64,000 nucleotides of DNA from assembly GCA_000004695.1 (NCBI GenBank), contig CM000153.2:480001-544000 (forward strand), given 5' to 3'. The translations under genes were made by a program, and so were the position numbers. The notes below the pieces were generated by a model. That model was given only the letters and a program-made list of their open reading frames with translations. It did no database searches and was not told where the DNA came from. How positions within the stretch are numbered: position 1 is the stretch's first letter; the number at the start of each line of letters is the position of its first letter. The DNA is from Dictyostelium discoideum (taxonomy: Eukaryota). Positions 42-15,564 of the stretch are shown here, in pieces.

Positions 42-2423
42 ATGACATCTCAAAATTGGAAAAATTGTTTTAATAAAAAAGCAATTGAGGTTATTGAAAT
101 TCATAGATCTCAGGAAACAATCACTGTTGAAACAGTAAATAATGAAGATAAAATCAAGAATAATATTTCAAAACCCAAAATTAAAGTACATAAAAAACCA
201 ATAATTAAATCAATTTCAAAGTTAAAATTACAACCAAAATTTTCGTAAGTAAAAACATTTTAAATTCTTTTTTTTTTTTTTTTTTTTTCATGAAAAAAAA
301 CATTTTAAATTCTTTTTTTTTTTAATTTTTTTTTATTTATTTTTTTTTTATTATTATTACTATAATTATTATTATTATTATTATTATTATTATTATTTTT
401 ATTTTTATTATTATTATTATTATTATTATTATTATTATTTTATTATTATTTGTATTATTTTTTAATAAAAAAATAATTTAAAAAATTCTAATATTTTTTT
501 TTTTTTTTCTTTTTTTTTTTTTTTTTTTTTTTTTTTTTTATAAAAGGAGATACAATGATATTATTGATTATTCAATTGATTTCAATTGTAATAAAAATTA
601 TTTCTTAAAACAAGATAAAGTTAGTGGTAATACTTTTATTCATGTTTTTTGTGAAAAAAGAGAATCAAAAATAAATTTAGAATCTGATATTGAAAATTTA
701 AAATGTTTGGGAAAGGAAACGATTGAAGCAAGGAATAATAATAAGGAAATTGCACTATTTTCAACTTTAAAAAACCAATGCCTTGGTTTAAAAATAATGC
801 ATGAATTAATTTCAAGAAATGTTATGTTCATTGATGATAATGGTAAAGATGAGTTACTAGTAAAATGTTTAGAAGAGGGTAGAGTTGATATGGTGAAATA
901 TTTAATTACCGTTGATATTAATTTGATCTCAAAATTAAAGAGAATATGCCAAATTACCCAATTAAGCCTAGAAACACTTCAATTTGTCGAATTAATTAAT
1001 TCAGAATATGAAAAAATCGTAGAAATTGGTTTAAAATCTGCAGGTAGAGAATACATTAAATTGTTTTTCATTCAATTTATTTTGGGTAATTTTTCAAAAG
1101 AATCAATCATCCAAACAATTGATGAATATAAATTACCACCAATTCCAAAAGAAATTGAAGATTTTTTCTTTGTTTATAATTATCAAATGTGTGACTTTGT
1201 TAAATTAACTGAAATCAAACCACGTTACCTCAATGAAATTTCTAAAATAAATATCTATCCAATTGGTCAAGTCTCCATTGAAAGAAGAAATGAACTCGGT
1301 CGTGGTGGTAATGGTACCGTTTATTCAGGTGTATTAAAAGAGATTGATAGTCAAGGTAATGAAATTTCAATACCAGTTGCAATCAAAATACCAACTCAAT
1401 TCTATAAATCAAAATTGGTTGAAGTATATAAAGAGTTGGCTATTCATCAAAAGATTAATGGTATTTGTGGTCCAAAGTTATTTGGATGCGTAAAGTTAAA
1501 TGTTGGATTTGGTATTATAATTGAAAGATTTGATTGTAGTTTACATGACTATATTCAAAATAATAATATCGATTTCGATTTATTTTTTGAATTGGCTCTT
1601 AAAATGGTTATAACAATTAGAAATCTACACAAATGTCATTTAAATGAAATATTCCATCGTGATATTAAACCACACAACTGGTTAGTATGTATATTATTTT
1701 AATACTTTTTCATTTTTCATTTTAATATTATAATTTAATTTAACTCTTTGTATTTTTATTTATTTATTTTAGGTTAAAAAAACTAAAGATGAATTGGTGG
1801 TCGTTTTATCTGATTTTGGTTTATCAAGAGAGAATAGTGAAACAAATGAAAATACTCTTCAGAAATATAGAGGAACATCAGTATTTATTCCACCAGAATT
1901 AAATGATAATATCTTATATAATGAAAAATCAGATATATACTCTTTGGGTGTATCATTTATGATGTTGCTTTATAAAGTTGTTTATGGCAAAATGGAAAAC
2001 CCATTTTATGAATTCAAAATTTCAAAAATGGAATACTTCAAAACAGTTGTTGCTTTAGAGAACTTTTTAGTACCAATTGTACCAACATTTTTACCTGATT
2101 CTTTTAAAGAGTTCTTGTTCTCAACAATGAATAGAATCTATACATGTCGTCCAAATTCTGAAGAATGTGTAGAAAGACTCATAACACTAAAGACTGAATA
2201 TGAAAATGATAAAACCAAATGGCAAGTAAATAGTGCTATTATACAAAAAGAAAAATCATTACTCACTGATTCAATAATTTCACAACAATTGAAATTAATG
2301 AACCAAGTTAAAAAATTTGTTCAAGAAAATGATAAATTCGTTTTTTTGAAGAAAACAAAATTATTTTTTTCAGAATCTGAAATTAAACAATATCTTTTGT
2401 CAATAATAAAATGTCAAGAATGA
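42..2423 (+). CDS. Ankyrin-repeat protein kinase (TKL-like), 3 exons: 42..244, 547..1684, 1773..2423 (663 aa)
   Basis: The Gly-loop GRGGNGTVYSG, catalytic loop HRDIKPHNWL and DFGLSRE motifs are present, with ankyrin-like repeats N-terminal to the kinase domain. The donor of intron 1 is GTAAGT at 245 and the acceptor is AG at 545-546, giving phase 2. Intron 2 runs 1685..1772 (GTATGT...TTTTAG) and splits the codon after HNWL. The exon lengths sum to 1992 nt, which is 664 codons. Confidence 0.7.
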
Positions 2424-2874
2424 AAACTTTAAATAAAATTTTTTAAAAAATAAAGAAAAGAATTAATAATTAGATTATTATTGTTTTAATTTTTTTATTT
2501 TTTTTTTTTTTTTTATAATTAACTGTTATCAAATTCTGGTTTTTCAAAATAAAATAATTCTTTCTTTTTATACAATTGCTTTTAATTCATCTATAAATCT
2601 AATTTGTGATCTAGTTGATTCTAGTTTTAAATAGCTAAATTGGTAATCTAAGAAAGTTGATTCTTTATTTTTTTTTATTTTTTTATTGAACACCAAAGTT
2701 ATATCTTTTTTTTATTTTTTGAGTTTTATCTTTTAACTTTTTTTATTTTTTGAATTTCTTTTTTTTGTAATATTTTATATTGGAATGCTAATAATTATGA
2801 ATTACTTCTTTAAAATATTTTAAAGAAGAGCAATATTTTATTTTATTATTATTATTATATTAATTATTTTTTTT

Positions 2875-14900: not shown

Positions 14901-15564
14901 AATTGTCATCATTTTCATCATTTTTATTACTCTCAATATCACTATTTATTGCTATAACACAATCTATTTCTTCTTTATTATACTCTATTTTCTCGAAAAT
15001 AAAGATATTATTATTATTATAATTATTATTATCATTATTACTAATACTATCAAAATCAGAGTTGATATATTCTTTATTATTTTCTATTATTTTCTCTTTT
15101 TCAAAATTATTATTACTATTATTATTAATATTAATATTACTATTATTACTATTATTATTACTATTGCTTTCTCTAACTATATTATAATTAATAGTACTAT
15201 TATTATTACTATTGTAATCATCCTTATTATTATTTATTATATTACTTTCTCCAACTATACAATTATTATTATTATTATTATTATTATTATTATTATTATT
15301 ATTATTATTATTATTATTATTATTATTATTATTATTATTATTATTATTATTATTATTATTATTATTATAATTAATATTATGATTAATATTATTTAAAGAA
15401 ATATTTTTTTTAGGAGAACAATAATATTCCTTTTGGGAGAGAGGAATAGAAATATTTGGACTACTACTCATTCGTTCAAAATGTTCTATTCTGTTTTTGA
15501 TTGGGGAAAATGAATTGTTTGGTGTATTGGTTTTATTAATATTATTATTATTATTATTTTCCAT
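11931..15564 (-). CDS. Ankyrin-repeat protein kinase paralog, 3 exons: 13964..15564, 12699..13797, 11931..12584 (about 1117 aa)
   Basis: The kinase motifs GEGGFSTVHKA, HRDIKLENWL and DFGLSRS are present, and the catalytic-loop intron 12585..12698 (GTATGT donor) sits at the same codon as in the kinase at 42-2423. The 5' exon encodes a poly-N-rich N-terminus and is joined through a phase-2 intron 13798..13963 (GTAGGT donor, TTACAG acceptor, containing an A tract of about 75). The total is 3354 nt, which is 1118 codons. Linking the 5' exon to the kinase exons is inferred from matching phase and from the analogy with the paralog. Confidence 0.6.

Follow-up and report, generated by a model that had tools for sequence, protein, structure and literature searches.

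Two protein kinase genes converge on a divergent pair of tgr-like genes, here called tgrX and tgrY, in a 64,000-nucleotide window of the Dictyostelium discoideum genome, the analysed DNA being that of strain AX4. We consider it likely that these kinases, which belong to the Dicty7 family, are offshoots of ankyrin-kinases and that their placement as bookends around the tgr pair is a strain-lineage rearrangement within a dynamic tgr region. The AX4 layout would then represent one state of a rearranging region and not a conserved design, and we infer no dedicated signalling link between the kinases and the Tgr proteins. An initial annotation of the window had placed kinase 1 at positions 42-2423 (plus strand) and kinase 2 at 11931-15564 (minus strand), and both genes were found there in convergent orientation. 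They do flank a divergent gene pair of Tgr type, as judged by homology and Ig_TgrO1/TIG matches.

Gene models and family assignment

The exon structures of both kinase genes and of the tgr pair are summarised in Table 1. The spliced kinase 1 product of 663 aa is an exact match to XP_639149.1 (Q54R98, DDB_G0283301), and all of its splice junctions are GT..AG. Kinase 2 (DDB0231195) is modelled as a three-exon gene on the minus strand with a product of 1128 aa.

Table 1. Coordinates within the window of the two kinase genes and of the tgr-like pair that they bracket
Feature	Positions	Strand	Details
Kinase 1 exon 1	42..244	+	ATG to phase-2 GTAAGT donor; 203 nt
Kinase 1 intron 1	245..546	+	302 nt, 4% GC, phase 2
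Kinase 1 exon 2	547..1684	+	degenerate ankyrin-like region and kinase N-lobe; ends ...HRDIKPHNWL
Kinase 1 intron 2	1685..1772	+	88 nt, GTATGT..TAG, phase 0, catalytic loop
Kinase 1 exon 3	1773..2423	+	DFG to C-terminus, stop included
tgrX (tgr-like)	2981..6413	-	exons 6413-6356 and 6291-2981; 1122 aa; signal-peptide-like N-terminus
Intergenic, tgrX/tgrY	6414..7196		783 nt, divergent; putative common promoter
tgrY (tgr-like)	7197..9776	+	exons 7197-7218 and 7285-9776; 837 aa; Ig_TgrO1 and TIG
Kinase 2 exon 3	11931..12584	-	starts just ahead of DFG; runs to C-terminus and stop
Kinase 2 intron 2	12585..12698	-	114 nt, GTATGT..TAG, phase 0
Kinase 2 exon 2	12699..13830	-	degenerate ankyrin-like region and kinase N-lobe; ends ...HRDIKLENWL
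Kinase 2 intron 1	13831..13963	-	133 nt, GTAGGT..AAG, phase 2, T62 run on coding strand
Kinase 2 exon 1	13964..15564	-	533 codons plus 2 nt (1601 nt), 42.5% Asn, 15% GC

Judged by their sequences, the kinases are not new and are those published as the two-member family Other/Dicty7, consisting of DDB0229335 and DDB0231195, in the kinome paper (Goldberg et al. 2006, PMC1420674). Its supplements list both members as active, with intact VAIK, HRD and DFG motifs, and give proteins that begin MTSQNWKNCF... (kinase 1) and MENNNNNNINKTNTP... (kinase 2). The kinase domains start at residues 312 and 777, respectively, in the supplement and window models alike. Scores against Pkinase (PF00069) were 96.2 bits for kinase 1 and 118.4 bits for kinase 2, relative to a cut-off of 31.7, and those against PK_Tyr_Ser-Thr (PF07714) were 75.8 and 106.2 bits, relative to a cut-off of 23.1. 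Both proteins are predicted to be soluble, catalytically competent kinases of the Ser/Thr type, activity being suggested by the intact motifs GRGGNG, VAIK, HRDIKPHN and DFG in kinase 1 and GEGGFS, VAIK, HRDIKLEN and DFG in kinase 2.

The proposal of true paralogy between the kinases, each being the closest relative of the other, is upheld by three concordant approaches. They share 30% identity over 517 aa (E 3e-66), and in an exhaustive profile search covering 1.84 billion representatives the kinase 1 and kinase 2 clusters ranked at the top, followed by a gap to 200 bits. Reciprocal phmmer comparisons (220 vs 133 bits and 217-229 vs 162 bits) and a neighbour-joining tree of 45 taxa, in which the two form a clade with 100/100 bootstrap support, lead to the same result. 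A word-index search with kinase 2 had retrieved a single orthologue and missed kinase 1, which is a limit of its prefilter, and the exhaustive profile search was therefore used. In our sequence searches the Dicty7 family was found only in the D. discoideum and D. citrinum clades, and literature searches on DDB_G0283301 and the neighbouring gene IDs yielded nothing relevant.

Shared introns

Both genes carry a GTATGT intron directly after HRDIK(P/L)(H/E)NWL in the catalytic loop, as had been claimed, but no codon is split; placed right after the last base of the Leu codon (TTA/TTG), the intron is of phase 0. The position is exactly aligned in the two kinases, ungapped and in the same phase, and orthologues retain the intron as well, namely those of kinase 1 in D. 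citrinum and D. cf. discoideum and that of kinase 2 in the latter. It is missing from the nearest outgroup gene, an ankyrin-kinase homologue of Acytostelium. The first introns are both of phase 2, in agreement with the initial annotation, following exons of 203 and 1601 nt; they are separated by 14 alignment columns, within a stretch that does not align, and a common origin is plausible.

A degenerate ankyrin region

The region upstream of the kinase domain, previously described simply as ankyrin repeats, is homologous to ankyrin regions although it is degenerate: Pfam Ank_2 scores of 19.8 and 17.1 bits fall below the gathering score of 27.3. When an alignment of the Dicty7 N-terminal region was compared by hhalign with the ankyrin regions of amoebozoan Ank-kinases, however, a probability of 98.9% was obtained (E 1.5e-17, 134 columns). 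The best PDB sequence matches are all ankyrin domains, at marginal E values of 0.02-0.07, and those to KANK1, MPP8 and MIB1 range over E 0.02-0.8. An AF2 model of the region, built on a shallow alignment of 6 sequences, is all-helical with a pLDDT of 71.9, and a Foldseek search of the PDB with this model gave no match at E <= 0.001, its top 50 being free of ankyrin proteins.

The best non-self matches that span N-terminal region and kinase domain alike (profile positions ~84-591) are amoebozoan proteins combining ankyrin repeats with a TKL-like kinase, including Acytostelium subglobosum XP_012748067.1 and homologues in Synstelium, Arcella, Pyxidicula and Rhizamoeba. They share with Dicty7 a GNT..H.FC motif and a C-terminal EY..x..W motif and differ in that the TPLH ankyrin signatures have decayed in Dicty7. 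Although these Ank-kinases were nearest to Dicty7 in our searches, the kinome paper (PMC1420674) files the family under 'Other', with a table row giving no extra domain. The Ank-kinases are possibly equivalent to its TKL/ARK family, and the 'Other' classification hides a likely ankyrin-kinase origin.

The poly-Asn exon of kinase 2

Kinase 2 begins with a long Asn-rich exon that had been reported as 534 aa. Although the open reading frame does comprise 534 codons up to an in-frame TAG, the contribution of the exon itself is 533 codons and 2 nt. The A tract in the following intron, given earlier as about 75 nt, is in fact A62 (plus strand, 13897-13958). Assignment of the poly-Asn frame to kinase 2 is sustained, since it is included both in the curated kinome model (PMC1420674), which already has the N-terminus MENNNNNN..., and in a separate 1128-aa annotation. 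Upstream of the conserved exon 2 an ATG occurs only in the poly-Asn exon, and exon 2 of AX4 has no in-frame ATG before residue 88. Exact sequence look-ups with the 1128-aa protein, the poly-Asn frame alone and a Met-621 start gave no match, probably because a fragment representative conceals the AX4 entry in the way seen for the kinase 1 cluster.

It is unlikely that the poly-Asn frame (13964-15564) lies outside the kinase 2 protein, as a separate gene or untranslated sequence, with kinase 2 starting elsewhere. In the annotations of two wild-isolate assemblies the region is indeed detached from kinase 2, forming genes of 403 aa and 284 aa; frameshifts disrupt the frame in both, and the exon has a GC content of just 15%. 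The pN/pS values of 0.7-1.2, from two alignable islands of 88-95 codons, are uninformative on coding constraint. On the other hand, the one frameshift that was compared with AX4 lies at an A-run and the remainder in AT-rich, homopolymer-rich sequence, so that these frameshifts may be assembly errors. Moreover, the frame of residues 1-87 of exon 2, which precede the first ATG, is conserved as open in D. cf. discoideum, and these residues contain an H-F-C motif in common with kinase 1, while the poly-Asn frame ends in a GT donor of compatible phase in all three genomes, displaced by 84 nt in one of them. The exons are joined in the curated kinome model as well as in the independent 1128-aa annotation.

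The bracketed tgr pair

The length of tgrX agrees with the gene call in a second D. discoideum assembly, and the 821-aa main open reading frame of tgrY is 100% identical to protein P0178 (837 aa), the spliced lengths also agreeing. Pfam matches to Ig_TgrO1 (1.2e-26) and TIG (8e-6) were found for tgrY and none for tgrX, and the two products are 28% identical over 736 aa (E 1.6e-49). TgrX carries a long, Ser-rich block of 22-aa repeats downstream of a hydrophobic stretch, and because of this order the stretch was read as transmembrane and the repeats as a putative cytoplasmic tail.

The start codons at 6413 (minus) and 7197 (plus) give the divergent arrangement of the tgrB1/tgrC1 type and, like the tgrB1-tgrC1 locus, the pair encodes TIG-domain surface proteins separated by one short intergenic region (PMC12745789). 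Also shared with that locus and the tgr family are local duplications, moves, gene fragments and strong differences between isolates (PMC12745789). In contrast, the Pfam match of the pair is to Ig_TgrO1 and not to tgrB/C. Genes of the tgrA/H/I/O classes are of unknown function and show low expression (Holland et al. 2025, PMC12745789), and the Ig_TgrO1-type class often relocates (PMC12745789). Kinases are not mentioned in the main text of that paper (PMC12745789), nor does the kinome paper (PMC1420674) mention a position beside tgr genes.

Each kinase gene lies tail-to-tail with the adjoining tgr gene and only tgrX and tgrY have an intergenic start region in common. The co-regulation raised in the initial annotation, if taken as a promoter shared between kinase and tgr gene, is therefore excluded. 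No further Dicty7-like genes were found within the window, which contains one additional kinase gene, of the PB1-kinase-WD40 type and unrelated to the pair. A second, paralogous tgr pair in the window, which retains 70-85% DNA identity, has NUDIX and adaptin genes as neighbours and lacks a Dicty7-type kinase. In AX4 a repeat of ~640 nt flanks the kinase 1-tgr-tgr block on both sides, and local repeats show 76-85% DNA identity.

Synteny, copy decay and divergence

The locus was compared, in slices of ~22 kb, with five other assemblies: a second, near-identical D. discoideum, a wild D. discoideum isolate, two of D. cf. discoideum and one of D. citrinum. In each of the five distinct genomes (AX4, wild D. 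discoideum, the two D. cf. discoideum and D. citrinum) kinase 1 has tgr genes directly downstream; it adjoins them wherever it occurs and is copied together with them. Adjacency of kinase 2 is confined to AX4, the near-identical assembly and the wild D. discoideum isolate. The two kinases of D. cf. discoideum are ~100 kb apart and in the same orientation; kinase 2 there has no adjoining tgr pair and stands between an FAD-oxidase and an aldehyde dehydrogenase gene. In D. citrinum it is absent within 10 kb of kinase 1. The wild D. discoideum isolate carries a second copy of kinase 1, split and stop-bearing, ahead of a second tgrX/tgrY pair. A kinase 1 copy of D. cf. discoideum is likewise a pseudogene, with a stop, a frameshift and the changes HRD to HSD and VAIK to VVIK.

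The kinase domains are under purifying selection, dN/dS being 0.23-0.30 in kinase 1 and 0.14 in kinase 2, and values of 0.5-0.8 were obtained for the N-terminal region of kinase 1. DNA identity among isolates is 85% for kinase 1 as against 90-94% for the non-tgr flanks, a rate similar to that of its tgr neighbours and above that of other neighbours, and such divergence would be in keeping with a variable partner with which kinase 1 co-evolves.

Origin of the AX4 arrangement

Dicty7 probably descends from the proteins, common in Amoebozoa, that combine ankyrin repeats with a TKL-like kinase, its helical N-terminal region then being a decayed ankyrin-repeat module. Kinases 1 and 2 are old paralogs that would have retained two ancestral introns. 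Kinase 1 usually stands tail-to-tail with a tgrX/tgrY pair, its tgr neighbours being of the fast-duplicating Ig_TgrO1 type, and would have been carried along whenever this kinase 1-tgr segment of ~12 kb was duplicated or relocated. The slower-evolving copy is kinase 2, whose older neighbours would be the FAD-oxidase and aldehyde dehydrogenase genes. In the lineage of D. discoideum proper a rearrangement probably then set the kinase 1-tgrX-tgrY segment beside the 3' end of kinase 2 and so generated the bookends of AX4. We infer the direction and number of these rearrangements, and their order is a reconstruction because the genomes were compared as slices. A single inversion accounting for all three arrangements was considered and dropped; beyond kinase 2, more kinase 1/tgr modules are present in the wild D. 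discoideum isolate.

The convergent orientation, the common intron positions and the ~640-nt repeat on either side of the kinase 1-tgr-tgr block could be taken to indicate that one kinase gene underwent a local inverted duplication around the tgr pair, and a duplication footprint had been among the earlier suggestions. We regard this as highly improbable: at 30% identity the kinases are far older than the local repeats, and than the duplicated tgr pair with its high DNA identity, and their flanks have differing ancestral neighbours. Moreover, the distance and common orientation of the kinases in D. cf. discoideum, and the occurrence of kinase 1 without kinase 2 nearby in D. citrinum, argue against such an event.

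Against the rearrangement model stands the adjacency of kinase 1 and tgr genes, kept despite tgr mobility, which could reflect selection for linkage. Since this adjacency holds in all genomes examined, functional coupling is possible: kinase 1, joined in AX4 by kinase 2, might serve as intracellular partner of TgrX/TgrY, with selection keeping matched alleles linked. Duplication of the kinase 1-tgr module as a unit in the wild isolate, the tgr-like divergence of kinase 1, the raised dN/dS of its N-terminal region and the Ser-rich repeats in the putative TgrX tail all point in this direction. The idea is nevertheless weakened by the fact that kinase 1 copies have decayed more than once (D. cf. 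discoideum, wild D. discoideum isolate) and by the kinase-less second tgr pair; nor do kinase and tgr genes have a common promoter, kinase 2 adjacency is missing outside D. discoideum proper, and kinases at tgr loci are unmentioned in the literature searched. We judge a functional cassette improbable, and kinase-tgr coupling is at present unsupported. A specific form of it, in which a kinase 1-TgrX-TgrY cassette of the D. discoideum and D. citrinum clades, passed on, copied and relocated as a unit, would constitute a dedicated non-B/C Tgr signalling arm, with the fast-evolving degenerate ankyrin region reading the variable, repeat-bearing TgrX tail, is decidedly doubtful. Were the linkage functional, kinase 1 would be the first candidate intracellular component for TgrA/H/I/O and would offer a route to Tgr signal transduction.

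The comparison also brings out annotation faults in the new wild-isolate assemblies, where pseudogenes are masked by some additional introns and the poly-Asn exon is called as genes apart from kinase 2.

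Gene models

The two protein kinase genes, kinase 1 and kinase 2, lie on opposite strands around a head-to-head pair of tgr genes, tgrX and tgrY, and their gene models agree with the layout proposed in the initial annotation. The product of kinase 1 matches exactly the AX4 protein XP_639149.1 / EAL65791.1 / UniProt Q54R98, named "Probable serine/threonine-protein kinase DDB_G0283301", which identifies the window as AX4 reference sequence and kinase 1 as a gene already annotated. The window has a G+C content of 22% and its first 12.4 kb are 99.87% identical to the chromosome-scale D. 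discoideum record GCA_054883475.1, where a single gene of 1128 residues is called at the position of kinase 2.

Features of the window discussed in the text
Feature	Position	Strand	Properties
kinase 1	42-244, 547-1684, 1773-2423	+	three exons, all GT..AG, 663 aa
tgrX	2981-6413	-	1122 aa
tgrX tandem repeat	2843-3553		66 nt (22 aa), 10.9 copies
tgrY	7197-9776	+	837 aa; Ig_TgrO1 and TIG domains
~640-nt element	10587-11235		between tgrY and kinase 2
kinase 2	15564-13964, 13830-12699, 12584-11931	-	three-exon model, 1128 aa
kinase 2 intron 1 homopolymer	13897-13958		62 nt
FAD-binding/BBE oxidase gene	17204-18607	+	downstream of kinase 2
Erv1/Alr-like gene	18765-20435	-	downstream of kinase 2
DUF7034/7035/7743 gene	21258-26219	-	large; downstream of kinase 2
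NUDIX/Dcp2-like gene	36604-37800		neighbour of tgr pair 2
tgr pair 2, minus-strand gene	38010-40010 + 40090-41160	-	two ORFs; ~70% DNA identity to pair 1
tgr pair 2, plus-strand gene	42271-44733	+	85% DNA identity to pair 1
beta-adaptin-like gene	46167-47810		neighbour of tgr pair 2
PB1-kinase-WD40 gene	50946-54789	+	intron-split kinase domain

In both kinase genes the first intron is in phase 2, as originally described, and a GTATGT intron immediately follows the codons for HRDIKPHNWL (kinase 1) or HRDIKLENWL (kinase 2). The shared catalytic-loop intron was thereby borne out but not the split codon attributed to it, since the intron is in phase 0 and follows a complete Leu codon. The A tract in the first intron of kinase 2 is also shorter than the earlier estimate of about 75 nt. 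Apart from such small details the initial observation is accurate. The introns of both genes carry 4-10% G+C and the exons about 26%, in agreement with the description of Dictyostelium introns in the kinome study (Goldberg et al. 2006, PMC1420674).

The proteins encoded by tgrX and tgrY share 28% identity across 736 aa. The C-terminal tail of tgrX, which we read as cytoplasmic, consists of a tandem repeat with a motif of about NNNISNNNNNDVACSSNNNK, and the array extends beyond the stop codon. The length of tgrX orthologues varies between 647 and 1122 aa, and so the repeat copy number may differ among isolates.

Paralogy and origin of the kinases

Kinases 1 and 2 are true paralogs, as had been claimed, and mutually closest. 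In an alignment of 517 aa that runs from the N-terminal region through the C-terminal tail they share 30% identity (E 3e-66), and in single-sequence searches each was the top non-orthologous match of the other (220 bits versus 133 for the runner-up with kinase 1, and 217-229 versus 162 with kinase 2). A profile built from kinase 1 orthologues and one kinase 2 orthologue, searched against 1.84 billion cluster representatives, yielded the kinase 1 and kinase 2 clusters and no others above 200 bits, and the two kinases grouped together in 100 of 100 bootstraps of a neighbour-joining tree (45 sequences, 296 columns). The paralogy is real but was already published in 2006: the kinome supplements list kinase 1 (DDB0229335) and kinase 2 (DDB0231195) as the sole members of the family "Other / Dicty7", with VAIK, HRD and DFG motifs intact; neither Dicty7 nor gene neighbours are mentioned in the main text (PMC1420674).

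In the nearest outgroup, an Acytostelium C1-GRAM-ankyrin-kinase protein, residues 920-1314, including the HRD loop, are encoded on one uninterrupted exon, and the catalytic-loop intron thus marks the lineage of the two kinases. D. cf. discoideum retains this intron in both kinases and D. citrinum in kinase 1. The phase-2 introns are separated by 14 alignment columns, within a stretch that does not align with confidence, and a common origin for them is plausible.

The Pfam Ank_2 model matches both kinases at an equivalent site, below the gathering score. In an exhaustive search, profile positions ~84-591, extending beyond the kinase domain alone, aligned with amoebozoan proteins that carry true ankyrin repeats. 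When the Dicty7 N-terminal alignment was compared by hhalign with the ankyrin regions of ten amoebozoan proteins, the match had a probability of 98.9% (E 1.5e-17) and paired GNTFIHVFC and EIALFSTLKN of Dicty7 with GNTPLHYFC and ETPLHKAVFN, respectively. A PDB sequence search gave marginal matches, the top ones all being ankyrin domains, and an AlphaFold model of the N-terminal region (helical, pLDDT 72) did not match ankyrin folds. We conclude from these alignments that the N-terminal region is a putative decayed ankyrin module, with ankyrin-kinases as the probable ancestors of Dicty7, which extends the 2006 classification slightly.

Pairwise Nei-Gojobori dN/dS estimates show that both kinase domains are under purifying selection (kinase 1, 0.23-0.30; kinase 2, 0.14) and that the kinase 1 N-terminal region evolves faster (0.47-0.79). 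Between two isolates kinase 1 shows 85% DNA identity versus 90-94% for its non-tgr neighbours, a divergence similar to that of the tgr genes beside it.

The poly-Asn exon of kinase 2

Exon 1 of kinase 2 (1601 nt, 42.5% Asn, 15% G+C) can be argued to be either a separate gene or part of the kinase gene. Two wild-isolate assemblies have a frameshifted ORF and separate genes annotated from its 5' part (403 aa, L003 8338-9698; 284 aa, L010 17970-18943), and pN/pS is 0.7-1.2 in two alignable islands of the exon. Of the two or three frame changes per ORF, however, the one compared with AX4 coincides with an A-run and the rest are in AT-rich, homopolymer-rich sequence, and they may therefore be assembly errors. 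Moreover, exon 2 in AX4 offers no ATG downstream of the acceptor before residue 88, and the preceding 87 residues constitute a conserved open frame that includes an H-F-C motif also present in kinase 1. In three genomes the ORF ends in a GT donor of compatible phase, in spite of an 84-nt indel that moves the donor in one of them, and two independent gene models splice the exon to those of the kinase. The curated DDB0231195 protein starts MENNNNNNINKTNTP... and its kinase domain begins at residue 777 (PMC1420674 supplements), as in our model, so that the poly-Asn exon is already within the curated gene.

Synteny and the bookend arrangement

Slices of about 22 kb around Dicty7 orthologues were compared. 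Tgr genes follow kinase 1 in AX4, in a wild D. discoideum isolate (GCA_054859385.1), in two D. cf. discoideum isolates (GCA_054859205.1 and GCA_054859235.1) and in D. citrinum (GCA_054859145.1), and in GCA_054859235.1 they lie on either side of it. Upstream from kinase 1 there are a metallophosphatase gene and two more genes in three genomes, and aldehyde dehydrogenase and mitochondrial carrier genes in AX4. Among these slices, a tail-to-tail placement of kinase 2 and tgrY is confined to AX4 and the wild D. discoideum isolate. In GCA_054859205.1 kinase 2 shares a contig with kinase 1 at a distance of about 100 kb and lies between an FAD-oxidase gene and a 143-aa gene followed by an aldehyde dehydrogenase gene, with no tgr pair alongside. 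The same genes flank the AX4 four-gene block as a whole, which consequently looks like the GCA_054859205.1 kinase 2 locus with an added kinase 1-tgrX-tgrY segment; insertion of this segment beside the 3' end of kinase 2 would generate the AX4 arrangement. The order of the three genes downstream of kinase 2 (17204-26219) is kept in D. cf. discoideum (L003).

The bookend layout had been read as a possible duplication footprint or as a sign of co-regulation or signalling. A local inverted duplication does not account for it, the local repeats being much younger than the kinases, nor do the genes form a co-regulated unit, since each kinase meets its tgr neighbour tail to tail and only the two tgr genes have a putative promoter region in common. 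That kinase 1 travels with tgr genes keeps a functional cassette alive as a reading, albeit one of low probability, and repeated decay suggests that kinase 1 is often a passenger. In GCA_054859205.1, kinase 1 (L004 10001-12286) carries an in-frame stop, a frameshift and the changes HRD to HSD and VAIK to VVIK, the stop and frameshift being masked by extra introns in the annotation (P0003, 593 aa), and it is either a likely pseudogene or the result of errors in the assembly. In the wild isolate GCA_054859385.1 a second kinase 1 copy, located past the kinase 2 promoter (L008 1683-2459 + 5099-5640), contains stops and is split by an insert of about 2.6 kb; its exon-2 fragment is 94.7% identical in DNA sequence to AX4 kinase 1, and the intact copy there 87%. 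This broken copy is followed by another tgrX/tgrY unit and additional tgr genes. The layout is best read as a product of lineage-specific rearrangement in a dynamic tgr region, with nothing out of the ordinary for the surroundings of a gene family that moves quickly. A 2025 study of these genomes reported that tgrA/H/I/O genes, of unknown function, frequently duplicate and insert at new sites, and did not mention kinases (PMC12745789).

A second divergent tgr pair occurs in the window, with no Dicty7 kinase in its neighbourhood. The ~640-nt element, present only in AX4 and not found at the loci of other isolates, recurs as a direct repeat some 2.6 kb upstream of kinase 1, before the start of the window (L001 5157-7379; 76-85% identity), where the copies lie amid inverted tgr gene fragments. 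A further, unrelated kinase gene of the window, encoding a PB1 domain and WD40 repeats, shows only 28% identity to Dicty7 over 125 aa.
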